From Seison nebaliae (lineage: Eukaryota): a stretch of 34,193 bases of DNA. The translations under genes were made by a program, and so were the position numbers. This document shows, in pieces, positions 3,374-33,414 of the stretch. The notes below the pieces were generated by a model that saw nothing but the letters and a program-made list of their open reading frames with translations, did no database searches and was not told the origin of the DNA. The DNA lies in the NCBI GenBank assembly GCA_023231475.1, contig JALJEE010002886.1:1-34193 (forward strand). Direction: 5' to 3'. Within the stretch, counting starts at the first letter, position 1, and every line of letters begins with the position of its first letter.

Positions 3374-5577
3374 TTATTGAAGTATAGACTGTAAAGAATA
3401 ATCTCTTAATTGATTTTTATTCTCATCTTTTCTTTTTGATATATTATTCATGATGGACGTTGTTCCATTGGAAGTTGCTGGTAATGGTTGTTTAGACATT
3501 AACGATAACAAATATGAAACATTTTCATTGAAAGATTTCTGATTTGGTTTTTCCTGTTAAAAGTGAAGATTTAGAATTTTACAAATATAATATGAAAATG
3601 AACTTTCTCGTTATTTCCAATTGGTTTCTTTTCATTCAGTTCCTCTGATAATTTCATATGTTTTCTTTTTCCGTTATATTCATGGTTCTTATTGTCACAT
3701 GAATCAGACGAGTCAGATGTGGGAGATGGATGACTACGTTTATTAAACTCATTTGTAATTGATGGTTTTTGATTGATGCTGGTAGAAGATTTGTTATCAA
3801 TAGATTTGAGAATTGCTGAGAAATTTGATGAGATGCCGTTCGTGTTTGAACTGCTTTCAGATTTGTTTAAATCCGTCTTCTCCGATGGAATTATTGTAGG
3901 CAACGGCCAAAATGAAGGTAAACCATTAATTTGATTTATTTTCGAAAGAAAATTACCAATTTGTAAGGAGTCGGAAGTCGAAGAGTCTTGAATATTAGGA
4001 ATATTTAATGTGCCGTTCACTGATGGCATCGATAATTTCATTTTTTCCAAAATATTATCAAATATCTCATTTCTGCAATTCGATTGTAATTTCAACTGAT
4101 TTTGTTGTTGTTGTTGCTGCTGTTGTTGTTGCTGTTGTTGCTGTTGTTGCTGTTGTTGCTGTTGTTGAAATAGTAATTGTGTGGCGAAATGTTTAAGAAT
4201 GTTACTAGTCATCGAAGTTGAATTATCTATTTTCTGATTAGAATCGATTGATAGAGTTTTACCTTCATCGCTTGTTGTCGAAGTAGAAATTTGGTCGACA
4301 TCAATGGATGATGATGTTTGATCATTATCTGTATCATAATCTTTCACAGAATGAGATTCTAACATTTTACTAAACTTCTCGTCATCCAATTCATCATCTT
4401 CATCTTCATCATCAACTTCATCATCAATATCATCTCCAAACATTTCTCCATTATTCTTCATTCTTGTTCCGTTTTCTTTACTCATCTGCCGATGACGTCG
4501 ATGTTTATTCGAATCGAACAATTCTAATGGATAAGAGAATTGCGGATTACATCCATAATTACCATATTGCTTCTTATTTTTTAATGCTGCTGCTCTATCC
4601 CGCTGACGTCGATTTTTGAACCAGTTACCAACTTGTGTGGAAGTGAGTCCAGTCGCTTTTGCTAATTCTTTTTTTTTCTGAGGATTCGGATAGGGGTCTT
4701 GAAGATACCATTCTCTTAAATGTGTTCTGGTACGTTCTTTGAAACAATGAGTCTTCTGTTCGCCATCCCAAATTGTATTTGGCAAAGGGAACTTCTTTCG
4801 GACTCGGTATTTATCAACTGGACCAAGAGGTCTACCACGAATCCTCTCCGCTTCAATGTAATGCGCTTCTAACCACATTGCTTGTAATTTAGCATGAACC
4901 GTCATCGGTTTACTATTCGCATTAGCTGAAGATATTTTATATACATCATTTGGAAATTTATTTTTTTCAATAATCGAATATAATTCCTTAAAATTTCCCG
5001 TATGATAAGCGATAACCGCTCGACAACGTAATACAATGGAATTTTGAAGATATAATCCATTGTATTGAGGAAGAATGGAGAGAAAGTAGAGAAATTGGGC
5101 CAATTTCTCATAACATTCATCTTCTTCTAATTTCCTACAATAATCGATACATTTCTGTTGGGAACCAATTACATTAAACGGCGACTCCACCATCAACTTT
5201 TCCATGTTCTGATTGTTGATTAGAGTCATATTCGTACCATTGTTATTTGTATTATCAAGATTATCGTTAAATTCAGTCAAATTCACTTTCTTCTCATTTT
5301 TAATTAATTCGTTGTGATGATGTGAATCGTTCAAATTAGTTGGAATGGAGATATTGGTCGATTTCGACAATTCTTTCTCTTCGTCATTATGAATAGTTTT
5401 ATTCGACATGATCTCGTTACCGTTAACTGTGTTTGGGACTAATTGTTGTAATAATGTTGTAATATTATTATTAGTTAAGATGTTACTCCAAACATTCATC
5501 GTTGAAGAGAAATCGACAGAAGAAGAATCTAATGTAGTCGTAGTTGAATTAGATGAAGTTAACGATTGTTCATTCAT
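3374..5577 (-). CDS. Six3/6: Six3/6 (Optix-like) homeobox transcription factor, ~717 aa; exons 5577-3604 and 3553-3374
   Basis: SIX domain ([32 protein letters not shown]) and homeodomain with Six3/6-diagnostic QKTH and [12 protein letters not shown]. Intron 3554-3603 (GTTCAT..ACAG) joins an open exon ending DYSLQSILQ*. Confidence 0.97.
4102..4167 (-). repeat. CAA/CAG repeat encoding a 22-residue polyglutamine tract in Six3/6
   Basis: Mixed ttg/ctg triplets on the + strand, in frame with Six3/6. Confidence 0.95.
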
Positions 5578-8077
5578 ATTTTATCCATCAATTTCGAATA
5601 AATCTACTTAGAATAAGCAATTCCCAAATAATCCATATATTAGCATTATAATTAGTTATGTTGGTTAACAGAGATACTATTAATTGGAAATCGAAGAAAA
5701 TAATTGGAAATTCAGAAAAAATTGATTGGAGATTCGTATTCGTGCATCAACTAACTGATAACAAAAGAAAAAAGGGGAATCGTCGAAAAAGAAAAGAGAG
5801 AAGGTTGCTTGTCGTTATCGTGTAAATTTCAACCATATACATTACGAGTAACAAGTAGCGAAAAGGCCAATCAAAAATCTAGAATACGAAATAACTTTTC
5901 CGATTTGAACGAATATTTGAAGGATTACTTCAGAGAGGAATAGAAAGAAAACTCAGAACTATATGAATATGAACAACGTCATCTTAATAATAAAACAATA
6001 TACATCCAATACATTAAATTGGTGTAATATAATAAAACTGATTAAATTAAAATTAATACGAAACATTACGAAAATTATTAAAATTTATATTAATTAACAT
6101 TTCTAAATGTTTATCGATTAAACATGTTCAACTTATTTTTGATTGAATAAATAGATAGTTGGGAAAGTAAACTGCTTCAATCAATGTCGTACAAAAATCA
6201 TTTGGTTGGAGAACTGGTTGCCGGATAAATTTTCCATTTGGTATTGATTCATTAATAAGTGGATATAGTGCAATTATTTTACTTGTTTCACTTACACCTT
6301 GAATGAATGATTGAATGGATAGATAGTTGTAGATAAATTATTAAATGAGTTGACAAAATGAAAACAATAGGGTAAGGATAGACGTATCTGATTCGAGGTT
6401 CTTCTACGTTGAGCCTCGAAGTAAGAGAAAAGAAATGTTTCATAATTACATGTTTGACACCCAAAACAACTAATGTGTCTGATGCAAACTTTAGATAAGA
6501 ACTGAAATGTGCCATTTTCCTAATAGTTTCGATAAAGGAATATATCGATATGCAATTGGTTGAATGAACTATAATTGCTGTAATTATTTATTTTGGAAAT
6601 TGATTATATGAATTGATTATATCGAAGAATTGGACGTATGAAAGAAAACTTCCAATATAGTCAAATGAATGTGTCAATTGAAAACAGGAAAAATCATAGA
6701 AATCGATAAGGACCAAATCAAATAGTCTTCTGGTGGGCGGTGAACATGTTATTTAACAATTGAAATTTAAAGTTTGTTGATTATTTCCTGTTGGTTGGGA
6801 AGAAGACGAAGAAGAAGACGCAGAAGAAGAAGCAATTATTTAAGAATTCTCCTATCGATGTTTAAAGGAAATGGAATCGGTTTGAATAATGTCTTGATAA
6901 TGGAGAACATTGAATATAAGTATATGTTATCGTATGAATTAATCGCGGATAAATATGTCATCAGGAGAATGGGTTGAAAGCTCACGAAATACGATATGTC
7001 GTTCTGAAATAAATATGTCACATATTTCGGTAGGATGACAATACGGAATTGTTTTCGAAGAAAATTATGTGCATCTCAAATTCAGTTATCATCACTGATA
7101 TTCTTCATTATTCTCCTCTAAATTATCATTCGCTTATGATGAATGATACATAAACAAACACAACTCAGATCTTGCATACAGATATGCGATCGGCTACATG
7201 TGAATAAGAGACTCATAATAATGTATCGAAATATTTCTTACGGTTTTCATAATTTTTCCTATGCTACATCTCATATGCTCTCATTCGTCTCAATGATTAT
7301 TCGAATAGAAATAATGAGACTTGTCTCAAATTTTGTTCTTCTACGGTTGGCATTCAATTACAGAAGCTACTACAAGAGACGAATCTAGTTCGATAACAAG
7401 TGTGTGTGCAATATTTTCGGGTGGAAAATAACAAATTGACATGATATGAGATTAAACATATAGAATGATAAAAAATGCCAGGTTCATAAATTAATGAAGC
7501 CATCATCATTTTTGGTTGAATCGATGGATCGATCAATAAATAATGAGAAATGATCGTCTTATAATAATCGGTGAATATATATATATAATAATCGACTGCT
7601 CTCCGATATGGAAGTAAGAAGATTGAGAGGAGAATGCATATCCATTGGATAGAATGAAGTTACAAGTAATTAGGAAATCAGAGAACTATGAAGGAAATGA
7701 TATCAACATTCTAATGAATATGTCGAGACGAGGGGAGGAAGAATGCATTCTATTACGTATTTTTGTATGCATATCATTCGAAGAGGATAGTTTTTGTACA
7801 TTAATATCTGCTCAACAAATCCCAGTTAACATTAGAGTTATGTGTTTGATTTAAGAAGTACCACATATACAACTATAATTGAACAGACGATTATGATAAG
7901 TGATCATAATAAGTATCTCTGTTTCCCATACGAGTTAAATATTTCAATTGAATGAGAACTTCGAATAAGCGATTCGTTTCTCACTTTCTTTTCTTCTCAC
8001 ACCAACAAAGAGGAAATGAAAGAGAAGATGTAGAAGAAACATAATTATGAATAATTAATCGAATAATCTCAGAAATT

Positions 8078-12521: not shown

Positions 12522-14353
12522 TCATACATTCTTCTTTAAACTTGCTTTAATCCATTCAATATAACTGGCAAGTCTTGTATAGCCACCTTTTGTACCCTTA
12601 CATGATCGATCTAGTGGTCCAAAACTTACAATACCCAACTGCCTAAATACGTTGTTGACATAAGAGAAAGCCGGACCTCCACTGTCGCCCTAGAAAGAAT
12701 ATTTTTTATAAGTTAGAAGAGAAGTCTAACTTGACATGCGTCTTTCACTTCATTGGAATTTCCTGCACAAAATGCTTCTTTCGTATCTGTAATACTACAA
12801 GAACTTGGAAGTAGCACAGGTATTGTAACTTTCTTCAGTTTAGTTGATATAGCTCCTTTTCCATCTTCATCTGTAAGGCCCCATCCTAAAACAGTGAGAT
12901 TCTGATTAGATGTCGGTAGTTCGGTGGTGTCATAATTTGAGTTTGGCAAACATGTGGGTCTTATTCCATCATTATAAGTTAATGGGGAACATAATCGAAG
13001 GACAGCAATGTCGTTTTGTAATATTTCCGTGTTTTCAGTAAATTTTGAGTGCTAGAATCATAATTAGAAATTAATAAATGGAGAAAAAAATTTAAAGTAA
13101 CATATAGTACGTAATCAATTTTTCGTTGGAAAGAAGATGATGTTGTTAGGGAGTTTAATCTTACACTTGATTTTGTTAAATTAATGTTCGATGGAAAACA
13201 ATGGGCAGCAGTCAATATCCAGTGTTTATTAAGAATCGTCCCTCCACATAAATGATCATCACCAGATATGCTCAATTGTAGACTGACGACTGCAGGATAA
13301 TTCGAAATATCTCCAACATTAACACCACCAACTATGCGTCCCGAATTTTTACACCAATCCGAATCATCCGGTAAAGTTTTTGCATCATCGGTTTCTACAG
13401 ATGAACATTTTGAGTTTCTTAAAATACTTGATGTAAGAATGGGTGCTTAAAAAATATAAAGTTATTTAAATATTTGAAAACTTTCTAAAATTCTAAACCC
13501 ACAGTAGATTTGGTAGATGTTGTGATTTGTGTGGTAGTTATTGTTGTTGTTTTAGTAGTTGTAGCGGTAATAGGTTGGGTGGTGGACTTCGTTGTTGTTT
13601 CCGTAGGTGACTCGGTGGTAGCGGAAGATGTAGTCTAAAAAATATAATTAAGAATATTAAATTAAATGTAAATTTGACAGTAGGTGTGGTTGATGCGGTA
13701 AAAGTTGTTAGGGTAGAAATAGTAGAAATGGATGTAATTGTCGTTATGGCAGAAGTAGTTGAAGTGGAAATAGTTGTTATTAGGGTAGTTAAAGTAGTGG
13801 CGATTGTTGAAGTTCCGATAGTAGTTGGATTGACAGTAATAGTGGAATTAATTGTGGTAGTAATATTGGTGGTAATTGTGGAATTAAATGTGGTTATGTT
13901 CTGAGTTAATAATTTAATTTATTCAAACCGATTATAAACGAAGTACAAACTGTCATAATAGTTGTGGTAGTTTGATCGTCATCATCATCTTTTGTGATGA
14001 AATAGATTATTAAACCGGTCGCCGCTAGTAATAATAATGTTGCAAGAACGAGAGATACGATTAAAGGACTAAATAAATAAAGTATCTCATTATAATTTGT
14101 TCTATAATGAATGACCCAACATGTTCTTCCGAGGCCCATAATACGGACTAATCGGATAATTTGAATAATTTACAGGATAGCCAGAATTGGGATATGAAGA
14201 ATAACCGGCTCCATGATAGTTCCCCGGATTATTAGCAGAATAATTATTGGGATAAGGATATGACGATCTATACGTTGTATATTGGGGATAGCCGGAATAA
14301 CCATTAGCATTGGGATAATTATGACGATGATAAGTTGTGAATGTTTGATACAT
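12522..14353 (-). CDS. Type II transmembrane trypsin-like serine protease with Thr-rich mucin-like stalk; introns 14069-14120, 13901-13950, 13635-13678, 13446-13498, 13052-13101, 12690-12730
   Basis: Spliced product: Tyr/Pro-rich N-terminus, TM helix (LIVSLVLATLLLLAATGLIIYFI), Thr-rich stalk, R-IVGG activation site, LTAAHC, NDIAVL, DACQGDSGGP (S1 Asp, trypsin specificity). Confidence 0.93.
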
Positions 14354-14494: not shown

Positions 14495-15587
14495 TATTTG
14501 TAAAATTATTGTTTACCCACCCAAAGATCCACTTTCATTTAATTTCTTTTATCGATAGTATTAACGAGAAAATAATATGTTGGGAATTCACATCAGAAAA
14601 TCAAATTTTTTCTGAATTTAAAATTGATCAACTATGTTGAATCATTTAATATTGATAGTTTATTCGAAAAGTGTAGTTATTATATTTAATATATTATCCA
14701 TGTGAAACTATATCACTATGATCAATGTCATGTCATTATTGTCCAAACATCATATAATGTTTGCAACATTAACTAACACTTATTAAATTTAACTTGAAAT
14801 TTACAAATTATTTCCATAAGTTTTATTTATTCGTTCAGTTGCGGTAAATACAAACAGCTAACAATGCAAGTGTAAAAGTAAATTTAAACCCAATACTTTA
14901 TACTCGAATAATTTTTAATTTGAATATTGAAATATTCAACAAATTATGGAATTACCATATGAAATTCAACTTCCCATTTCACTAACAAGTTTTTTTTAAG
15001 GTAAATAGAATTGTCGATCATCCATTTAAAAAAATTTATTGAAAGCAAAAAACATGTGATCTGACGTTTCGATAAATGACGGGGAAGATGATACGACAGA
15101 GAAAAATAATAGAAAGAAGCTTTTAATTCTAAAATTTGAAAAGTTCATAATAGAAAAAGAAAAAATTAGAAAACCAAAAAATTAATTTTGACTTAGATTC
15201 ATCTTCCAACGTATAACGCAACACAATTCTGACACGTTTAACCCTTTTACAATTATCATTTATTGATGGTTTCTTAAAGGAATAAGGAAAGTATCATCAT
15301 CAGAATAGTGAATTTTTTGTTGGAAGGAACGAGATTGATTTACTTGGAAACGGTTGATGAATTCGAAATTCGAGAAAACTTTTTTAAAACTGTGTCATTT
15401 AATTAGATTCTATTGTTTAACAATCGAATAAATTGATTATTCATATTCTTCCTTCATTCATTCATTTATTTTCTTCTTCATTTACAATTTCTTTTATCAA
15501 GAAAGATCTTCATTCCAAGAAGAGAACGATAAAGATTCACATCATAAAAATCTCAATTGATTTTTCTTCTGCTGTTAAGAAAGAGAG

Positions 15588-18500
15588 ATGTTGAATGATC
15601 AAACAGATGAGAATGGTGGAATCTTGACTGATATTCCATTAGATGATGAAGATATTTCTAAAGTTCCAACTTTACCACCAGTGGCCTCATCATCAGTTGC
15701 ATCACAAAGATTTGATCCACTACAAATGGAGTCAATGATTCCTCCACAAATGATAAATATAGGAAATGAGCGTAATCTGAATAACATGACAAATCAATTT
15801 ACTAATTTAACGACGATAATGCCTCCCATGCCATCACAAATTTCGTCGATACCACCAATATCGAATAATTTTTCTCAACAACCTCCTCCATTAATCAATC
15901 CAGATGAATTATTGAAAAAATTTGTTCCTTCATCTATAATAAAATCGAAAAATCAATCCGAAAATGATCTGAAGAGTAAGTTGTCAAATGATGAAAGAGA
16001 AAGAAAACCGTCTCCATTTGAAAAACATTTAGTGAAAGATAATTCACGAGATTCTTCACCATTCTCTTCATCAAACGATTTAAAAAAAGAGTTATCATCA
16101 GGAATTCAATCGCATTCTATGAGTCATGAAAATATTGATAACATCTATCTATCTGATCAATCATTACAGAATACAGGAGAAGGAAAATTAGATTTCAATA
16201 GTTCTATGAATCAGAATGAAAATTTGATAACAACAAATCCATATGATGGATCATCAACATCCATCGATAAACAAATACCGTCTGAAATTCCATCATTAAC
16301 TTCGTCAAATTTTCAAACAACATCAACTTTACAACAACTATCATCAACAACGTTTTCAAGTCATGAAATGGTTTCTTCATTAAATCCAGTGACATTGATT
16401 GAAAAACAAATATTACCAGAAATTCCTTCATTAATTGGTAATAATTTTCAACCAATTTCAACTATACAACAACAAACATTATCAGCAATTCCACCTATTC
16501 AATCCAGAAATGTTTCTACGACATTATTAAAAGGAGATTCAGGAGAGAAACCTCCAACAATGTTCTCTGGATATGGTTCATCTCAAACTTCTTCCGGTAT
16601 GGTTCAACCGCCATTTTCAACAACACAAACTGCAATACCAGGAATGCTACCAATGGATGGTAGACTTCCTTCATTGCAAGCGATATCAACAATGTCATTG
16701 AATCATTCATTCAATCCTCCATTTGAACAATCATCATCCATGATTCCGTCAAATTCCATGAATCAGAGACCACCCATAATAGATTCAACTACTCTCACAT
16801 CGTCGAGAATGCCACTAGGGCCAATGAATCAGTCTTTAAATAAACTTCCGCCAACATCATCAATTGCTCCTTCACCAATGATGCCATTAGGATTAATGAC
16901 GCAACCTCCGTCTACGATACACACTTCTTCAGCAAGTCAACCTCCATCAATAATGCCTGAAACAACGATAAATCAACCTCCTTCAATGATGCCTCCATCG
17001 TCATCAAATGAACCTTTATCGTCAATAAGTCCTTTGACAATGAATCAATCTCCGATGATGATGTCACCATCATCAACAATTCAATCTCGTTCTATGGTGT
17101 CGGAACAAACATCAAATCAGCCAAAACGATTAATGGGACAAGTTCCTCCAACAAATGTGTCAATAGTACCAGGTCAACCTCCCATAACAATGTCATCAAA
17201 TTCTTTTGGAGAATCTCCAAATATGATGCCACGTAGTTCGACAAATCAACCACCATTTAAGGGGGCAACAAATTCTGTTGGACAAGCTGCATTTCCAATG
17301 CAGCAAACCACATTGGACCAACCCCCAATGATGCCACCAGGTTCGATGAATCAATCTTTAAATATAATTCCACCTGGTTCGTTGGGTCAGCCACCAACAA
17401 TGATGCCACAAAGTGGATTGAATCAACCTTCTAATATGATGCCACCAGGACCATTGGGTCAACCGTCAACAATGATGCCACCAGGATCAATGAGTCAACC
17501 GTCAACAATGATGCCACCAGGACCATTGGGTCAACCGTCAACAATGATGCCACCAGGAACTATGGGCCAGCCTCCGAATATGATGCCACCAGGACCATTG
17601 GGTCAGCCACCAACAATGATGCCACAAAGTGGATTGAATCAACCTCCTAATATGATGCCACCAGGATCAATGAATCAACCACCATTAATAATACCTCCAG
17701 GATCAATGAGTCAACCGCCAACAATGATGCCACCAGGATCTACGGATCAGCCTCTGAATATGATGCCACCAGGACCATTGTGTCAACCACCAATAATGAT
17801 GCCACAAAGTGGATTGAATCAACCTCCTAATATGATGCCACCAGGATCAATGAGTCAACCGCCAACAATGATGCCACCAGGACCATTGGGTCAACCGCCA
17901 ACAATGATGCCACCAGGAACTATGGGCCAGCCGCCTACAATGATGCCACCAGGACCATTGGGTCAGCCACCATCATTGATGCCACTAGGAGGAATGAATC
18001 AACCACCATCAATGATGCCACCACAAATATCTGGAATGCAACCGAATCAAATCGTTCAACCAGGAATTCAAACAATGCCACCATCAATGGGTGGAATGAA
18101 TCAACCAGGTAATCAGCAGTTCAATCAAATGGGAGGAGGAGTACCACAATCAAGTGGCCCAAAATTGAGTATGATGCCAGATAAATTATTAATTGAAGAA
18201 GATAATCGATTAAAACATGGAGAAAATGAATTATTCCGAGATGATGTAATTGGAAATGTTCCTCCACTCGTTACTACAAATTTCAAATATACTTCCTCCA
18301 GAGGTCGATGTCATCCAGCATTCATGCGATGTTCAACTTACGTCATTCCGACAACACCCGACATTTCTCGACGAATGGATATACCGATTTGTACCGTAGT
18401 TTCTCCTTTTGCTTCAGTAGACGATTATCAAATTCCGTTAATCAATTGTGGTGCTGATGGTCCTGTCCGTTGTAAGCGTTGCAAAGCATATATGGCACCA

Positions 18501-21062
18501 CAAATGCAATTTATTGATGGTGGTCAACGATTTCATTGTGTGTGGTGTGATTCGTTTACAGATGTTCCGAATGAATATTTCAATCATTTAGATCATACCG
18601 GATGTCGAATTGACAAATGGCAACGAGCAGAATTATGTTGTGGTTCATTCGAATATACGACGAACGATTTATATAAACATAATAATCGTAAAGGAGGACC
18701 AACGGCATATTTATTCATGATTGATTGTGGTCAAGAAAGTATTCAGAAAGGATTACTCGGATTAATTGCTCATAATCTTTTCGATCAGATCTTAGCTCAA
18801 TTGCCCAAAGATTCGAATGAACAATACTCAAAATGTCAAATTGCTATTGTGACTTATGACACGAAATTCTATTTCTACAAATTGACAAAAGGATATAAAC
18901 CTCAAGTGATTATCGTTAACGATTTGGAAGATGTTTTCATTCCATTATGTTCCGATCTTTTCGTTGATCTGAATGAACATGAATCTGATTTACGACATCT
19001 CCTCCAACAATTACCCGAAATGTTCATCAATAACAAAGAGAATAAATCAATGCTCTCTCCTGTACTCCAAATTGTACAACAAGCATTTAGTTCTACTCGA
19101 TTGGTCGGTCGTGCATTTATCTTCCATACTAACTTGCCTACAATGGACCTCCCAGGCAAATTGGACATCCGTGACAACAAACATATTCTCGGAACGGAAA
19201 AAGAGAAAGTTCATTTTACCAAAATTATTCCTGTTCATCTTTTTTCCTCAATATTTTTAGACTATTTTAGTTTCAGCAACGAATGAATATAAAAAATTGG
19301 GAGAAGTATGTGTTGATAATGGTGTCGGTATCAATATGTATCTCTTCCCAAAAGCATATGTTGATATCGCAACATTAAAAGATGTGACAGCGACTACTGG
19401 TGGAGAAATTCGTTTATATTCTGATTTCCAAGTTTTTTCTTAATAATATTTTATTATTTAAATTTGTATATTATTAGGTGGAAAGTGATGGGGAACAATT
19501 TTTAATTGATCTACAAAAAAATATCAAGAAACGATGTGTCTATGATGCTATTTTACGATTGAGAACGAGTCCTGGTTCGAATAAATTTCTTCTAAGGAAA
19601 ATTAAAACAAAAATAATTTTATTTTAAAGGAATTCGACCTGTTGACTTTTTGGGCAATCACCAAATGTATAATTCAACCGATGTCAATTTAGCGATTGTA
19701 GATGAAAGCAAAGGTTTCTCTTTTTTCAAATTAAAATTTAAAATATAATTTAAAAAATAAATTTAGCTGTGACAATTGTGTTGAAACATGATGACAAATT
19801 ATCAGAGGAACAAGAAATCTATTTACAAGTTAACAATTTTATTCTAAATAAAGTGAGAAATATAATTTATGTTAATTAGGCAGCATTGTTATACACAGAT
19901 TTCGATGGAGAAAGGAAAATCCGAATTCATAATCAAATATTGAAAGCATCTTCAGCATTTGAAGTGTTATACGCAGCGTGTGATGTAGATGTCATTACAA
20001 ACTATTTATTGAAGAGTAGCATCAAATGTTGTTTGGAGACATCACCGAAAATTTTGAAAGATGAACTAATAAAAAAAGTATCGAACATTTTCACTTGTTA
20101 TCGAAAAGAATGTTCGAGAAGAACATCATTAGGATCATTGATCTTACCCGATACCATGAAGACATTGCCATTATTCACTTGTTGCATTCTACGATCGAAT
20201 GCTTTCGGTTTTGGAAATACGATTACAGTAGATAGTAGATCGGAATTAATGACAAGTTTGATGGCATCGAAAGTCTATCAATCCAATCATTTCCTTTATC
20301 CAAACATCTATATTGTAGTTAGATATGGATTTTGATTCTATCAATTTCTAATCAATTCCATCAATAGACGAGTGATGAATCAGAGAAAAAAAATGAAAGG
20401 AAACATGCCGGTTTGTCTACCCCAGAACAAAATGGAGATGATTCGAAAAAGAACAATGAAAATGAGAAGGAAGAAATAGCAGAGAATGATTTTAAAGAAA
20501 GTGATCTTCCTCCTCGAATTCGTTGCAATTATGAATCGATGAAAAATAATGAAATATATTTATTAGGTTCATATCAATTTTATTCATTTAAATTAATTAT
20601 TTTAATTTCATAAATTTTAATAGAAAATGGTTATCGAATGTATTTATGGATTGGAACTGAAGTCGAACCGAAATACATCACTGATATTTTTGGTGTGAAA
20701 TCTTTACAACATGTTCAATTAGAGATGGTTAATCCAATTCTTTTATGCTTCTAACTAATTTCATTCCTTTTCAGTATAAACGTTTACCGAAAATTGGAAA
20801 TGACATTTCTATTCGACTGAATAATATGATCGACTTCTTAAACTATCGAGCACAACGATCCATGAAGGTTGGAATTTTATTTAAATTAATAAATGAATTT
20901 TAACAAAATTTATTTTAGTTCTCAATCGTAAAACAACGTGAAGGTACAGAAGGTTTATTCAGAAACATGTTGGTGGAGGATCAAGGAATTCATGAAAACT
21001 CAACTTCTTATGTACAATTCTTATGTTCGATACATGCAAAAGTAAGATCTGCGATTAATTGA
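15588..21062 (+). CDS. SEC24C/D: COPII coat subunit Sec24C/D; introns 19209-19260, 19432-19477, 19575-19629, 19714-19766, 19829-19879, 20318-20367, 20567-20623, 20728-20774, 20868-20918
   Basis: VPPLVTTNF, zinc finger GPVRCKRCKAYM...FHCVWC, YFNHLDHTG, vWA trunk (YLFMID), LYTDFDGERKIRIHN, LILPDTMKTLPL, C-terminal LVED...SYVQFLCSIH. Frame is continuous after removing 9 short introns. Confidence 0.97.
17319..18023 (+). repeat. Coding minisatellite, 36-nt / 12-aa unit (QPPxMMPPGxxx), about 20 copies, in the Sec24 N-terminus
   Basis: Recurrent atgatgccaccagga units; higher-order 180-nt periodicity (17581 vs 17761; 17641 vs 17821). Confidence 0.95.
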
Positions 21063-25806: not shown

Positions 25807-26374
25807 TTACAAATTCATATCGACATCTTTCTTCATTGAAGCGATCCATTCTTTAATCTTATCTTTCGGCCATGATTTGTGATTCGTTATCAAAGTTTTC
25901 ATTTTATCCGAAAATTTGTTCATAAACTTCTTAATCGGATGATTGAATCTTGTATCGTCTAACTCGTCCGCGAAATTTGACAATTGATCTATAGGAAAAA
26001 TTTGAGTAGAATTTCGGTTATTAATCGAAGAAATTTTGAAACTTTGATAATGTTTGAATTGAATAGCAGTTTCCGGCGTCCATTGATGTTTTAATGCTTT
26101 AACAATAAATGACTTATAATTGTCCATGAATTGATTGAAATCATGTACATTGCCAGTACTTCGTTTACCAAAAAGATTTGAGAAGAAAGTAGTCAGAAAG
26201 TCTAAATTTCATAATGTTTACAAAATTAAGTGTAAAAAAAATTTAAATAAGAAAAAAACTCATTTTTGCTGGTTGAATAACATTGTCATGTATAAATTGA
26301 GTAATATCAGTTTGACGTTCTTCATGAGCGAAGACTGCACAAACCGTTATTGTTAAAATAATTAAAATTTTCAT
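25807..26374 (-). CDS. Secreted pre-pro-protein, 169 aa, with GKR amidation/cleavage site; intron 26202-26259
   Basis: MKILIILTITVCAVFA signal peptide, then HEER-QTDITQFIHDNVIQPAKMNFLTTFFSNLF-GKR, spliced in frame onto ORF 25807..26127. Confidence 0.8.
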
Positions 26375-26560
26375 TTTCTCTGATTTTCCTTCAAGTCAAA
26401 ATGAAGTTTATCAGTTTATAAAATGATCATGCTTCGTCCGTTAGCAGATGGAAGAATTCTCAGCAGATTCTGTGAGATAGATTCTGGTTGTGGAAAATAG
26501 TTTTTGGAAAAATTCAGGACAACGTTTTATTTAATAGTGAAAATGTGAAATGTTTTTCTT

Positions 26561-29500
26561 TTAAGAAGTTGTTGAATCAACTTTATCGTTATCAATTTCT
26601 TTTTTCCCTAAATGCTCCTCAATGTATTGGTGGAGAATGTCTGGCACATTAATATCACAAGAATTGATATTCATTATTGGTTCCATAGCTCTCAATAAAG
26701 AATTATACAAATTGGGAAATAATGATTCCTGTTGAGCTAAAATTCCTTTGATTCGATTTCGTTCCTGGTATAATTGAATTGTAGGAAATTAAGAAATAAA
26801 TACAAACTTTTGGAGCAGAGAAACAACCTGGACAATTTTCACTGATTATCGGAAGGTTTGACGACAAAGCGAAATGTTTCAAATCTTGTTCACGACAATA
26901 GACTAAAGGACGAATTATTCTTAAATCTTTCTCTCTGGAAAAAATAAGAATTTTTATTTATCATATTCTCTAACTTCACCGTATAAGATGCTTTGATCGT
27001 TCTCAGTAATCCATTATGAAAGATTGACATAATAAAACTGGAAGTAAGTGACAAATTAATAATAAAAAGTGAATGAATACTCGAACCTTTCTGCTAAATC
27101 GTCCAAATGTTGTCCCAATGCTAAAACGTTCCATCCTTCTCTTCTGGCAGCCGTGTACATTCGTCCTCGTTTCATTCTCGAACAGAAGGAACAGATTGAA
27201 CGACATTCATCTCCAAGATCTTTCGCTTGTTGAATAATATCTGTTAAATTATTTATAAAATAAAAAATATTGGGAATTAAATAAAAAATATAACTTTGTT
27301 CTTCGTAAAGATATGGTACATTCAATTCCTTCAAATATAATTTTAACGGTGACGGATCGTAATCTGCGGATTGTGGATCGATAGTCAATGCACCAAGTTC
27401 AAATTGAATATTCTGAAATTGTTTCAATATTTCGAATAGTTGATAAATATAGTAGTTAACTTGTGCTTCCAAATAAAATTGGAGAAATCTCATTGATTGG
27501 AGTAATGTCAACGAATCCTTCCCACCTGATAAACAAACTAGTACTCGATCGTTATTCCGGATCATATCAAAATCTTTTATCGCCTTACCATAAATGAAGT
27601 AATATTTAAATTAAGACGAATAAAAATAAGAAGAAAACTCTTAGAAATGGTAATCTGATAGATTTCGGCGGAGTGTACCATAATGATTTTCTTTCCATTT
27701 TCATTTCAATTTCACAATTCTTATTTTGGAGATTAGATGTAGAATCATTTACAATCTCATGAATATCATTTGTATTTGAATTTGAAATGAGTTCATCATA
27801 TTTCTTTACATTGAAACAAGAATTGTTCAATAATGAATCATCATTTATTTTTAAGAAAATTTCTAATTTATCATAAAATTCATTTGTCTTCTGATTAATT
27901 TCTGTGAGATCGAGTGATTTCTTTATTCCATTTAATATTGATACATAATGATCTCTTTCCGATTTATTCATCAAATGAATTGCTGATGTGACTTGATTTT
28001 GTAAGAGGAACCATTGATAGTTCATCATACCATCGTCATCATCAATATTCGTAGTAATTTTGATATCATTCTCAAATTTACTTTTTTTCGGATATTTAAT
28101 AATCATTTGAAGAAGATTAATTGAGTTGATGAGATTTTGATGAAAAGACATATCGATTTTCTTCTCTGATATATTTTCATTTTTCATTTGAATTTTATTA
28201 TTATCGAAATGGAGATTATTCAAATAAATTCGATTATTATCCAGTTTCCATTCTCGATGGACATATTCCCCAGTTTGTACATCATATCGATAGAGTGGTA
28301 AGAAGAAACTTCCAAATTTACCAATAAACTTTAAAACTTCCATCACATAACATAATTCTTCCGTTGTCGTAATATAAGAGAGTGAGATTCTTGTGAAACC
28401 GGGACGATAAATCTCATATGAAGGAAATTCATTTTTTCCTTTATTCTGGTGATCATTAACATCACTAAAAAATTAATGTTACATGCTTAAATTTGAAAGA
28501 AAATTAACGTTCCGATCAATAATAATTTCTCGAATTTTTTCACTAAATCATTCGACATTCCAAGAAGATGTTGTGCATAAGGACCAGCACACGAACATCC
28601 ACCACGACTACATATCCCGAATAAATCATTCAACAAACTAGTTACGAAATTGTAATGAAGATATTGGTTGAAAATTCGGTTGGATGAATTGATTCGATTT
28701 TGTAATTGGACGTTGATCAAGAATGAAAATATTGGAAGTTTTCTCTTGAATTTCCCTAATAATTTTAACGAATTCGATTTTTTTTGAAATGTTTGCACAA
28801 TATTGTCTATCAAATATTGATCTCTTCTCTCTATTTCATCAGTTGATAAAAGTTGTTTGTTAACAAGCATGACCAATCCTGCTCTTATCGATTCCATAAT
28901 AGCTGCTGTTCCACCTTCTTCACGAATCTCTTCATTTTTTAAATAAATCTCCGAATCTTTTCGTACCTGTTCAATTCGTCAATAATGAAAATAATGGATT
29001 ACTTCTGACCAATTGTATTGTGAGAGTACTAACGAAAAATACGCTTCCACCACCACAATTGAAAGGAATTGGATTGTTCAATAATTTCTTTTTAACAATT
29101 AATATTCCTGGAGTTTGAGGACCACCTAAGAATTTGTGCATTGAAAAATACATTGCATCTTTTCTCGTCAAATATTTCATTTGTCCATCAACTGATGGAT
29201 TCATATTGAGTGAAACATAAGGTGCGGACGCACTATAATCCCAGAAAACTAAAGAATCATTTTCATGCATTATTCTCGTGATCAAATCAATCGGTTGTTC
29301 AATTCCATTAATATTCGATGCACCATTAAATGTTCCTAAAAGGGATTTTGATATTGAATGAAATTTTTAAAGTTTAATGAAGAATTTTACCGATTATTTG
29401 ACGAGATGATGATGATTTTCTTAATTTAATCAATTCGCCTTTCAATTGGTCAATGTCAATTAAACCGGAATCAATATCTTCATTAATGATGATCATTTCT

Positions 29501-30094
29501 TCACAAACTTCTTTCCATGGTAACAGATTCGAATGATGTTCGAACAAAGATGAAATTATTATCTAACAAAAAGGTTTTTTTTAGATAATTGATATCAATT
29601 TGAATTAAACCGGTTTAGTTTGAAGATTTAGACAATGTATCAATAAATGAACAGCAGCTGTAGATCCACTTCCAATGAATATAACAGCATCCCCATCATC
29701 TGCATTGGTACTACTTCGAATAATTTGTCGTGATTCATCTCGAAGCATCGTCGTAATTAATGCATTTCTATTTAATCTCGTATGAGTATTCGCATAAAAT
29801 GGAAGACATTCTCTCAAAATAAATTGTTCTATAAATTCCAATGATTGACCTGATGCTGCATAATCACAATAAATAGCTAAAATAAATGAAAAATAGTGAT
29901 AAAACAGTTTTGTATTAAAAGACAGTTCAACTTTTCACTTGGCCGAAACATGTAGTAAATTGACCATTTTCTATTAACTGACTTCTCAAATATTTTATTA
30001 ATCTTTCGTAATATTGTTCGTTGTGTTGGGAAGCATCAAATATTATTTCAGATAATTTACCATCAACATGGTGGTAAAAATTACGATAACTCAT
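26561..30094 (-). CDS. Fusion protein: class V PLP cysteine desulfurase-like domain + TtcA-type PP-loop tRNA thiolase; introns 29877-29931, 29563-29610, 29336-29390, 28967-29033, 28465-28508, 27584-27638, 27413-27460, 27241-27294, 27038-27086, 26935-26974, 26765-26807
   Basis: N-half: YCDYAASG, YANTHT, EHHSNLLPW, DYSASAP, SMHKFLGG (PLP Lys), EEGGT, RGGCSCAGPY. C-half: DFDMI, LSGGKDS, ICSFCSRMKRG, LGQHLDDLAES, IIRPL, ENCPGC. One continuous spliced frame. Confidence 0.92.
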
Positions 30095-30923: not shown

Positions 30924-31972
30924 TTACTCGATGAACGGTATACCAGAGAAAGTGTTAAGACGATAAATGGCGAATTTGTTTTTGTATTCATTTTGTAATA
31001 AGTCATCTTCTAGTCTAATACGATTCTGGAAGAATTTCCATCCGACGAAAGTGAGAAAGAATAAGGAACAATAATTCTTTAGCATCAATTGACCTCCCAT
31101 AACCCAAAGAAGCCAACCGGCATAAGCAGGATGTCTCATATAATGGAAAATTCCACTAGTAACTAAATTGGCATCTTTGGTTGAACGACTTTCAAAATCA
31201 TCTTCAATAACATGAGAGAAATTTGAACGAAGAGAAACAAACGACGATTTTCTCAAGATCTCTCCTCCCAAAATCATTGCTAATCCATACCATCTTATGG
31301 AATTTGGAAAGATATCTTTACCAGTTGTCGATGCATAATGCATAGAGAAGAATTCGACACAACTTAATAAAATTGCCATATGATAATGCATCGAATGACT
31401 CATGAGGAAGGAATCATTCTTTAATGTTCTCGGCGTATAGAGAGCGGTGAATACGAATTCCGTCATATGAAATAGAGAAACGGCTGTACTATAAGTGAAG
31501 AACCATTTCCATGGTATACGTGCGTCTAAAATACCATACGTACTGGCGCCACATGCAGTTCCCAGGATACTACTTCTGACAAATATCTGAAAAGAAATAG
31601 TTTGAGAGAAAACACAAAAAAAGTATCAACTTCACTCAATCTCAATTTCGGATCAAAAAATTCTTCTCGTTTTCTGAACTTTCGATAGGAAATTAAAGCT
31701 GCGATCGTTCCAGCTCCAATGAGAAGAAGTAGAAACGGTTTTTGATATGAAGAATATTTGATTTCTTTTAAAGCAAATTTCACATTTTTTGTCCGAATGG
31801 CTTGTTTGAAGAATCTGGAACAAATTGATTTGATTGTTAACTTCTTTACATAATTTAACAGAATGAAAGACGAAGTAGACACAATACCACCGGCGAATCC
31901 ACCAATAGCTACATTAAGACACCATTCTCCATTATTGCGATAGTGTGCTTGCATATAATGCGCTGCGTACAT
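30924..31972 (-). CDS. ICMT: Protein-S-isoprenylcysteine O-methyltransferase, ~334 aa; intron 31587-31630
   Basis: SLFHMTEFVFTA, DSFL, GEILRK, NFSH, LVTSGIFHYMRHPAYAGW, FFQNRIRLED. Start at 31972 is inferred; a further in-frame 45-nt GTT..CAG intron near 31815-31859 is possible. Confidence 0.9.
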
Positions 31973-32241: not shown

Positions 32242-33093
32242 TTAGAGAAGTGATGTATTTATATAATCGATGAAATGTGTAGTGATCAATTGAATATTTG
32301 TGGAATGAGTTAATTCCTTATTTCGTTGACGAAATTGGGTAGCAACTCGTTTGATCTCTGCTTTCCTGTAATCTCTTTTTAGCATAAATGGAATTTTACT
32401 GTTCTCAATCGGAATTTCAGTAACTGGAATGACATCTTTCATCTTCTCTAATAGTTCCAATTGAATATTATTTATGATTTGTCCGAACGATATGATGTTG
32501 GTGGAAGAGACGATGGTGGTGGGAAGTGTGGCCATATTCGGTTTCTGTTTCATTCCATCAATTATCAAATTTAATACTTGTTTCATTGACAATTTAATTT
32601 TTTCTTCATTATAAGAATTGAAAATTTCGATTAATGGCAATTCCCATCTATCATCAACAGAGGGATATTCGAAACGTTGTTGAACTGCTTCAATCGTTGA
32701 TGAATGATATGTTTTGAGTGAATGATTTCTTCTCAATAATTCATCAATTCCTACATTCATCAAAATTAAACATTGTGTAGTCTCTCGTTCTTTACATAGA
32801 CAATAAAGTTCATAACGATATCCTTTTATATAATTAGCTGCGTCAACAATTACAATTTTTTCTTGGTCCAAATGATGAACGATATTCCCTTTAATTAATG
32901 CACGATGTTGTTTTTCATTATCCTTGTCCAAATACATCGCTTCTTTACTCATATTGATCGTCTTGAGAAGTTCATCTTCATCAACTAAATGAACGTTCGA
33001 ATAATTTTCATCTTCTTCGATAAAATTTTTTAATTTCCGAACAAATTCTGTTTTACCGCTCATCATATTCCCAACCATTGTGATAAGAGGCAT
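32242..33093 (-). CDS. KTI12: KTI12 Elongator-associated P-loop protein, intronless
   Basis: MPLITMVGNMMSGKT P-loop, EKQHRA, DAANYIKGYRYELYC, RFEYP...RWELPL, KPNMAT. Confidence 0.95.
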   Translation of the reverse strand: MPLITMVGNMMSGKTEFVRKLKNFIEEDENYSNVHLVDEDELLKTINMSKEAMYLDKDNEKQHRALIKGNIVHHLDQEKIVIVDAANYIKGYRYELYCLCKERETTQCLILMNVGIDELLRRNHSLKTYHSSTIEAVQQRFEYPSVDDRWELPLIEIFNSYNEEKIKLSMKQVLNLIIDGMKQKPNMATLPTTIVSSTNIISFGQIINNIQLELLEKMKDVIPVTEIPIENSKIPFMLKRDYRKAEIKRVATQFRQRNKELTHSTNIQLITTHFIDYINTSLL

Positions 33094-33414
33094 TCTTACG
33101 AAATCGAAGAGTGAATCTCAAAAAATGATTCCCTAAACTAACATTTTGAAAGAATTAATCTTTCCCTTCATCCTTTCCTCAAATACATGACATATTCGAA
33201 CAACTATTATCTGTTAATTTCTTTCTCATTCTGAACAATAATTTGCCATATTTTATCTTCATTATTTATTTAATTACACAGACTTATCGTTATATTTTAC
33301 AAAATTTAATATTAAACATTCGAATTATAACTTTTTAATAAAAAGTTTTTATTAGAACAATTAGTGCTTGTAATAAATTTCTAAAAAATATAAAAGAATA
33401 AACTATAATAAAAA

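Follow-up and report, generated by a model that had tools for sequence, protein, structure and literature searches.

A SufS-like cysteine desulfurase joined to a TtcA-type domain in Seison nebaliae: a predicted maker of 2-thiocytidine in cytosolic tRNA

Described thiolases and the Seison gene

Until a preprint on the mollusc Aplysia californica appeared in 2026, all reports of 2-thiocytidine in transfer RNA (tRNA) had, to our knowledge, come from bacteria and archaea. TtcA of Escherichia coli is a stand-alone enzyme that receives its sulfur from a separate IscS. In the eukaryotic cytosol, the Ctu1/Ctu2-Urm1 system (2-thiolation of uridine 34, s2U34) belongs to the same PP-loop superfamily and does the same job of tRNA 2-thiolation, using a ubiquitin-like sulfur carrier. 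Here we describe a gene that has a fused desulfurase instead. The gene, SNEBB_010898, is located in a 34,193-nt stretch of Seison nebaliae DNA (contig JALJEE010002886.1 of assembly GCA_023231475.1), which was analysed at its full length and is called the window below. Its product is a single chain of 991 residues in which a SufS-like desulfurase domain is followed by a TtcA-type domain, and we predict, with a probability of roughly 0.7, that this chain makes 2-thiocytidine at position 32 (s2C32) of cytosolic tRNA.

E. coli TtcA requires a [4Fe-4S] cluster in which one site is left open; Cys122, Cys125 and Cys222 are its essential ligands, and Cys219 is dispensable (PMC4081106). Two proteins with a fused architecture have been described in print. 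In 2022, the protein TGGT1_294380 of Toxoplasma gondii was named 'TgTtcA' and was described as matching the PP-loop family once and aminotransferase class V twice; when tagged with haemagglutinin (HA), it was detected at its full expected size in the cytosol and nucleus (PMC9420914). TgTtcA was assigned to the TtcA/TtuA family and, like the Seison protein, carries the aminotransferase class-V and PP-loop regions in one protein. The protist protein is considerably longer: its PP-loop lies at residues 1353-1528, and its aminotransferase match is split.

The second description is more directly related to a product. In a preprint dated 28 September 2026, s2C32 was mapped in tRNA-Lys(UUU) of A. californica, and a fused gene was named as the candidate s2C32 enzyme (bioRxiv 10.64898/2026.09.27.754811). 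This 'IscS-TtcA' (LOC101861551, 1177 aa) was identified by BLAST and is the only TtcA homologue reported there; the RNA-seq coverage is consistent with one transcript, and the fusion was found in 28 mollusc species and beyond. The preprint leaves the catalytic cysteine of the desulfurase portion unassigned. The Aplysia and Seison proteins have a class-V aminotransferase, a variable linker and a TtcA domain in the same order, and both have the lysine for pyridoxal phosphate (PLP), a Cys-x-Cys, SGGKDS, CSFC and CPxC. The Seison protein differs in its shorter linker and its total length of 991 aa.

The fusion architecture is therefore already known, and its novelty is much lower than an earlier note on this DNA, made from the letters of the sequence alone, had supposed: well over 100 animal proteins are annotated, in addition to the descriptions of 2022 (Toxoplasma) and 2026 (Aplysia). 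A full-text literature search found no paper in which the fused enzyme was assayed. The present analysis adds the assignment of Cys427 as the catalytic cysteine, the short-type origin of the TtcA domain and the absence of linkage between the two halves in the bacteria searched.

Two predicted catalytic domains in one reading frame

To define the gene, the window was spliced against the deposited protein. This yielded a minus-strand coding sequence (30094..26561) of 991 codons plus a stop, whose translation is an exact match to the deposited 991-aa entry 'hypothetical protein SNEBB_010898 [Seison nebaliae]' (P0001). Among the stop-to-stop frames on this strand are matches to both Aminotran_5 and the PP-loop family. 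The gene has 12 exons and 11 introns, all of the latter GT-AG and 40-67 bp long (55, 48, 55, 67, 44, 55, 48, 54, 49, 40 and 43 bp in order). The two sets of contigs compared with the gene (X1 and X2), both genomic, retain these introns and contain no splice joints. Exon 6 contains no stop codon, and the match to the TtcA profile starts inside it, at residue 721. Because this exon bridges both domains without a stop, the reading frame encodes a single chain, whatever happens later. An in-frame stop lies two codons upstream of the start ATG, and most homologues begin at the column of Met1. An N-terminus that begins so soon after a stop suggests a cytosolic location for the protein, and on simple reading it does not resemble a mitochondrial presequence.

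The N-terminal domain has the features of a SufS-type cysteine desulfurase. A sequence search of solved structures found SufS-type desulfurases (best E 5.2e-17), with Lys268 aligned to the HK lysine of three SufS chains and the EHHSN of the Seison domain aligned to the SufS EHHSN/EHHAN motif. In the phmmer alignment, 'srggcscagpy' lies opposite 'trsghhcaqpl' of the SufS structure 6a6e, which places Cys427 on the cysteine of 'rsghhca', in the R-x-G-x-x-C-A loop of SufS. Since Cys427 occupies the position opposite the SufS loop cysteine, we predict that it is the equivalent catalytic residue, with Cys425 as an invariant neighbour. A structural comparison gave a similar result. When a model from AlphaFold2 (AF2) was used as a Foldseek query, the top 50 matches were all cysteine desulfurases, nearly all of the SufS/CsdB type; the best SufS structure was matched at E 6.8e-24, and template modelling (TM) scores on the target were 0.75-0.83.

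Group II desulfurases of known structure (PDB 6a6e, 5vpr and 6c9e) thus have their fold, PLP lysine, EHHSN motif and catalytic-loop cysteine in common with the Seison domain. In contrast, the loop itself reads GGCSCA in Seison and SGHHCA in SufS, and the Seison protein has 140-200 extra residues after the fold, which are also found in a bacterial family of ~570 aa. By its sequence, the domain belongs to a separate desulfurase subfamily marked by RGGC[SA]CAGPY. This mark is present in 12 of the 12 bacterial proteins of ~570 aa that were examined, and R[GS]GCACAGPY is present in 14 of the 15 stand-alone animal relatives examined, the exception (P0026) having been matched elsewhere in its sequence. 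The CxC loop may resemble that of MOCOS/ABA3-type NifS domains. Stand-alone paralogues of the subfamily, which are 638-897 aa in length and have no TtcA domain, occur in echinoderms, cnidarians, cephalopods, a bivalve and a bryozoan (within P0004-P0094).

The C-terminal domain matches the Pfam PP-loop family PF01171 at residues 743-911 (E 1.3e-12). Its NCBIfam score is 207 bits for TtcA, compared with 59.5 for TilS_N, 50 for TtuA and 19 (against a cut-off of 500) for NcsA, the archaeal counterpart of Ctu1. TtuA/Ctu1-type enzymes carry extra zinc-finger CxxC pairs, and no CxxC was found in residues 700-991 of the Seison protein beyond CSFC and CPGC. The canonical set used for motif comparison consisted of gammaproteobacterial TtcA proteins from genomes with family-model scores of 476-500 bits. 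E. coli TtcA has its PP-loop and two CxxC motifs at positions that match those of the Seison domain, and its residue numbering was carried over to Seison by inference, giving Cys826, Cys829 and Cys919 as predicted cluster ligands. Adenylation followed by sulfur delivery from a [4Fe-4S] cluster, the chemistry of E. coli TtcA, is presumed to be common to both. The Seison domain shows 47-54% identity to a short type (~250 aa) of gammaproteobacterial TtcA and ~33% to the canonical type, as represented by a gammaproteobacterium other than E. coli, and like the short type it has ENCPxCF where canonical proteins have PxxCNLC.

Between the two domains is a linker (aa 527-715) with 15.9% Asn, compared with 8.1% in the whole protein, and with little conservation among 40 fused homologues. 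The AF2 model of the whole protein, built with 40 homologues, shows two well-predicted bodies (mean predicted local distance difference test score, pLDDT, 76.6; predicted TM score, pTM, 0.62). Order extends to ~aa 646, and residues 647-711 are predicted to be disordered (pLDDT <50). A separate model of the exon 6 portion (aa 455-729; mean pLDDT 67.6) gave no Foldseek match at E <= 0.001 and only generic helical matches with VIA-align (best Z 7.3), although a carrier fold may have been missed. The distance between the two catalytic motifs ranges from 261 to 709 residues among fused proteins.

These results uphold the architecture that the earlier note had proposed. The spliced frame at 26561..30094 with eleven introns is confirmed by the exact match to SNEBB_010898. 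The intact PLP site SMHK (aa 265-268) and the class II, SufS-like loop RGGCSCA (aa 422-428) agree with the SufS structure matches and the Foldseek fold. A TtcA-type domain is present with SGGKDS, CSFC and CPGC at aa 748-753, 826-829 and 916-919, and the Asn-rich linker is real. The note had also placed this domain with TtcA and not with Ctu1, whose extra CxxC motifs it had not seen in the translation, and both statements hold.

Spread of the fusion and bacterial relatives of its halves

Among the best 120 long proteins listed by TtcA-domain rank, 114 carry both Aminotran_5 and a TtcA domain, as expected from the earlier suggestion that similar architectures may be annotated in other invertebrates; the six without Aminotran_5 are P0298, P0300, P0318, P0324, P0338 and P0360. 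Both Pfam domains occur in 30 of the best 120 long relatives of the desulfurase piece, and a Pfam scan found Aminotran_5 followed by the PP-loop in all seven other fused proteins tested. Many fused entries have been named automatically as 'tRNA 2-thiocytidine biosynthesis protein TtcA'. The TtcA domain of Seison is 57-69% identical to those of the other listed long proteins (545-1735 aa), with a value of 52% for Haemonchus.

The fusion is carried by sponges, placozoans, cnidarians, annelids, molluscs, brachiopods, nemerteans, flatworms, a monogonont rotifer, tardigrades, a nematode, chelicerates, crustaceans, hemimetabolous insects, echinoderms, hemichordates and amphioxus and, outside the animals, by an ichthyosporean and a chlorarachniophyte. 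Transcript-derived fused open reading frames (ORFs) are present in EukProt entries such as P0043. This survey, which extends from sponges, placozoans and cnidarians to amphioxus, together with the Seison copy, supports the view that the fusion is an old, vertically inherited animal gene and no mollusc oddity.

An alignment of 40 fused proteins, Seison included, has 94 invariant columns, a number that excludes chance. Lys268, Cys425, Cys427, Ser748 to Ser753, Cys826, Cys829, Cys916 and Cys919 are each invariant in 40 of 40 sequences. A further column has Cys in 22 of the 40 and Asn564 in Seison. It probably corresponds to Cys588, a candidate cysteine of the Aplysia preprint. Because Cys is present in 22 of 40 proteins only, this candidate third cysteine is probably not generally required.

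To place the TtcA domain, a tree was built with FastTree from 102 rows of TtcA-type domains, rooted on TilS and evaluated by SH-like local supports with no bootstrap; the rows included no Ctu1 sequence. Canonical TtcA forms one clade (support 98), and the short-type and eukaryotic fused domains form another beside it (96). Seison is within a 46-row clade (support 95) made up of nine short rows, one of which is a spider fragment (P0166), and 37 fused eukaryote rows out of the 38 in the tree. Most of these 37 are named animals, and the others include the protist Creolimax, three EukProt rows and one metagenome row. The Seison domain adjoins those of Dimorphilus, Brachionus and Nymphon, and Amorphochlora is the fused eukaryote row that falls outside. 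The earlier note would have been refuted by a C-terminal domain of the Ctu1 kind, and the NCBIfam scores (207 bits for TtcA, 19 for NcsA) do not bear this out.

The distribution of the two TtcA types in bacteria bears on their function. A short-type query was run against 151 gammaproteobacterial genomes, a sample (within G001-G155) in which many genomes are incomplete. A match was found in 116 of them, of which 41 have the short type (at least 48% identity) and 75 have only canonical-like proteins (at most 43%). The two types were found together in just one of the 116 (G048). This near-exclusive pattern fits an isofunctional replacement and supplies our main indirect argument, namely that short-type TtcA would replace canonical TtcA in the sampled genomes and would likewise make s2C32. 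The two types also differ in length, canonical proteins being ~300 aa and short ones ~250 aa with ENCPxCF. No description of this split was found in the literature searched.

The desulfurase subfamily has a bacterial setting of its own. Its commonest neighbour is an Lrp/AsnC-type regulator, seen in 15 of 80 loci (L001-L080; for example L002:7365-7823, minus strand). The regulator lies ~170 bp upstream of the 570-aa RGGCSCAGPY enzyme and is on the opposite strand in 11 of 16 copies, which hints that the bacterial subfamily may be under amino-acid-responsive control. An 887-aa frame at a bacterial short-type TtcA was considered as a possible fusion and rejected: its contig has 70% GC, with long frames in several reading frames, and there is no desulfurase.

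Predicted reaction, alternatives and genomic setting

Onto the observed gene structure, one-exon fusion, domain identities and residue conservation, a reaction can be mapped whose chemical steps are taken from E. coli TtcA and SufS and whose tRNA product is taken from the Aplysia report. With PLP bound to Lys268, the N-terminal domain would desulfurate free cysteine, and Cys427, in the CxC loop of the subfamily, would carry the sulfur as a persulfide. The next acceptor, reached either directly or by way of a carrier, would be the free iron of the [4Fe-4S] cluster for which Cys826, Cys829 and Cys919 are the predicted ligands. C2 of the target cytidine (C32) would be activated through adenylation by the SGGKDS loop, and s2C would form when the sulfide on the cluster displaces AMP. 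The term 'self-contained' in the earlier note overstates the case for such an enzyme. By analogy with E. coli TtcA (PMC4081106), assembly of the cluster needs other machinery; because the cell's Fe-S assembly would supply the cluster, the enzyme is not fully self-contained. The note's suggestion of s2C in animal tRNA, in contrast, has gained correlative support from Aplysia, where s2C32 of tRNA-Lys(UUU) is found beside the same fused gene; for Seison itself, the product is a prediction.

Several results count against this prediction. SufS-type enzymes usually need an acceptor protein, and neither Foldseek nor VIA-align recognised a carrier-like fold in the model of aa 455-729; a partner of the SufE, SufU or CsdE type was not identified. 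Both domains fall below the cut-offs of the corresponding family models, with 98 bits against a cut-off of 475 for the sufS model TIGR01979 and 207 bits against a curated equivalog cut-off of 272 for TtcA. Five other fused proteins that were scanned also remain below the latter (167-201 bits on NF007972). Accordingly, the C-terminal domain is filed as a short-type relative within the TtcA family and not as an equivalog. The two halves of the fusion are also not linked in the bacteria searched. A TtcA gene lies within 8 kb of a desulfurase-family gene in none of 80 bacterial loci, and a desulfurase is near short-type TtcA in none of 14 loci, where the flanks are ~1.5 kb in 10 cases, longer stretches are available in three and the TtcA of one locus (L100) is canonical-like. 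The desulfurase family, which gave four strong matches and one weak match in the 151 genomes, was found in none of the 41 with short-type TtcA, and all five named genomes with the family that were tested have a canonical TtcA elsewhere. No biochemical assay of a short-type TtcA or of a member of the CxC desulfurase subfamily was found in the literature. In the Aplysia preprint, the link between the gene and s2C32 is one of co-occurrence, with no genetic or enzymatic test (bioRxiv 10.64898/2026.09.27.754811). Finally, bands smaller than full-size TgTtcA are also seen in Toxoplasma, so processing is possible (PMC9420914).

Some of these points would be explained if the TtcA-like domain thiolates something besides C32 of tRNA, such as another position, nucleoside or RNA, and if the short type is a paralogue with its own specificity. 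Its score below the TtcA cut-off, its greater identity to short-type than to canonical TtcA and the lack of an assayed short-type member in the literature all favour this explanation, as does the fact that the Aplysia target tRNA-Lys(UUU) is outside the E. coli TtcA substrates listed in the preprint (bioRxiv 10.64898/2026.09.27.754811). We nevertheless consider it unlikely. The occurrence of both types together in only one of 116 genomes with a match is a pattern of replacement and not of a second function, and in the Aplysia report position 32 is the only thiolated cytidine found and the fused gene the only TtcA homologue. Similarly improbable, in our judgement, is that the N-terminal domain performs other PLP chemistry, for instance as a selenocysteine or C-S lyase or as a sensor, and was fused for co-regulation while NFS1 provides the sulfur. 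The subfamily does stand alone in animals and in bacteria, where the Lrp/AsnC regulator is its commonest neighbour, it is unlinked to TtcA in the bacteria searched, its sufS score is far under the cut-off and its invariant CxC differs from the HHC loop of SufS. However, the catalytic cysteine, PLP lysine and EHHSN of SufS are conserved in it, and all 40 of the aligned animal and protist proteins retain the order of the fusion together with its two catalytic motifs, which argues for functional coupling. Moreover, cysteine and a desulfurase can serve as the sulfur source for E. coli TtcA activity in vitro (PMC4081106).

Whether the chain stays intact is a separate question. An internal start, or cleavage in the disordered and poorly conserved linker, could yield two proteins and no single-chain machine in vivo. 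The smaller TgTtcA bands are in line with this, and cleavage is raised as a possibility by the Aplysia authors (bioRxiv 10.64898/2026.09.27.754811). We rate this outcome a shade lower than the two preceding ones, given that one stop-free exon spans the junction, that the tagged Toxoplasma protein was detected at full size (PMC9420914) and that fused ORFs derived from transcripts are present in EukProt (for example P0043). A fused frame would also have no reason to be kept across Metazoa if separate products were made at the RNA level in every case. Bacterial contamination or recent horizontal transfer, which might be considered because the closest stand-alone relatives of both domains are bacterial, is refuted for practical purposes by the introns, the base composition, the neighbouring genes and the position of the Seison domain inside a mostly animal fused clade. 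The eleven introns are of the spliceosomal type, the GC content of the exons (0.315; introns 0.217) equals that of the window (0.312), and animal genes (SIX, Sec24, ICMT and KTI12) flank the gene. The fusion gene is thus a resident animal gene and no contaminant, as the eleven introns had already led the earlier note to say.

The prediction of an s2C32-forming chain can be extended, more tentatively, to the route of the sulfur. The Cys425-x-Cys427 loop may deliver sulfur directly to the unoccupied iron site of the TtcA cluster, in cis or across a dimer, with no need for NFS1, Urm1 or a SufE-like protein. We regard such a carrier-free relay as possible but doubtful.

Table 1. Positions in the window of the fusion gene, its predicted functional residues and the neighbouring genes
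Feature	Positions	Strand	Basis
SufS-like class-V aminotransferase domain, aa 56-435, exons 2-5	28565..29874	-	PF00266, E 2.4e-32
Lys268 codon (SMHK, aa 265-268), predicted PLP-binding lysine	29133..29135	-	SufS alignment, 40/40 invariance
RGGCSCA loop, aa 422-428	28586..28606	-	phmmer alignment with SufS
Cys427 codon, predicted persulfide-forming cysteine	28589-28591	-	SufS alignment
Asn-rich, poorly conserved linker, aa 527-715	27681..28247	-	Composition, 40-homologue alignment
TtcA-type PP-loop/Fe-S thiolase domain, aa 721-975, exons 6-12	26612..27665	-	NF007972, 207 bits, E 3.6e-61
PP-loop SGGKDS, aa 748-753, predicted ATP site	27512..27529	-	Aligned with canonical TtcA SGGKDS; 40/40 invariant
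CSFC, Cys826 and Cys829, predicted [4Fe-4S] ligands	27182..27193	-	On canonical CSLC/CGLC/CALC
CPGC, aa 916-919; Cys919 the predicted third cluster ligand	26823..26834	-	On canonical CNLC
Exons 1-6 of the fusion gene	30094-29932, 29876-29611, 29562-29391, 29335-29034, 28966-28509, 28464-27639	-	Splice map
Exons 7-12 of the fusion gene	27583-27461, 27412-27295, 27240-27087, 27037-26975, 26934-26808, 26764-26561	-	Splice map
Exon 6, 826 bp, aa 454-729	27639..28464	-	Open through the end of the desulfurase fold, family-specific extension, linker and first TtcA-match residues
SIX-class homeobox gene (SIX1_SD and homeodomain), one 669-codon open frame	3571-5580	-	Domain match
Trypsin-family open frame	12979-13446		Domain match
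Sec23/Sec24-family gene (zinc finger, trunk and helical domains), unusually long 1235-codon frame	15579-20335	+	Domain match
ICMT homologue (isoprenylcysteine carboxyl methyltransferase), between KTI12 and the fusion gene	30924-31625	-	PF04140, E 4.8e-20
KTI12 homologue, ~2.1 kb upstream of the fusion gene, same strand	32242-33117	-	PF08433, E 2.7e-50

KTI12 works in association with Elongator, as a factor for the mcm5(s2)U34 modification of tRNA. Its presence next to the fusion gene places two genes for modification of the tRNA anticodon loop within 7 kb, which is probably a coincidence. Directly downstream of the fusion gene, at 26243-26395 on the minus strand, is a short open frame that begins MKILIILTITVCAVFA, a signal-peptide-like start, and possibly represents exon 1 of a gene for a small secreted protein. 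The window has a single GC-rich stretch, in the middle of the Sec23/Sec24 gene (17001-18000; 0.455, compared with ~0.31). No tRNA genes or Rfam matches were found in the 34,193-nt window.

The fused desulfurase-TtcA gene is the obvious candidate for the s2C enzyme of animals. If the carrier-free relay is true, s2C32 would be widespread in the tRNA of invertebrates, Seison included, and would have gone unnoticed because of the choice of model organisms, and short-type TtcA, the source clade of the fused domain, would stand in for canonical TtcA in many bacteria with the same function. The interest of the Seison gene in particular would rise only with a demonstration of that relay, because the gene is ordinary for the fusion family and adds a lineage and no new principle. 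Seison is an early-branching relative of rotifers with a reduced lifestyle, and its copy makes it one more lineage that has retained the fusion gene.

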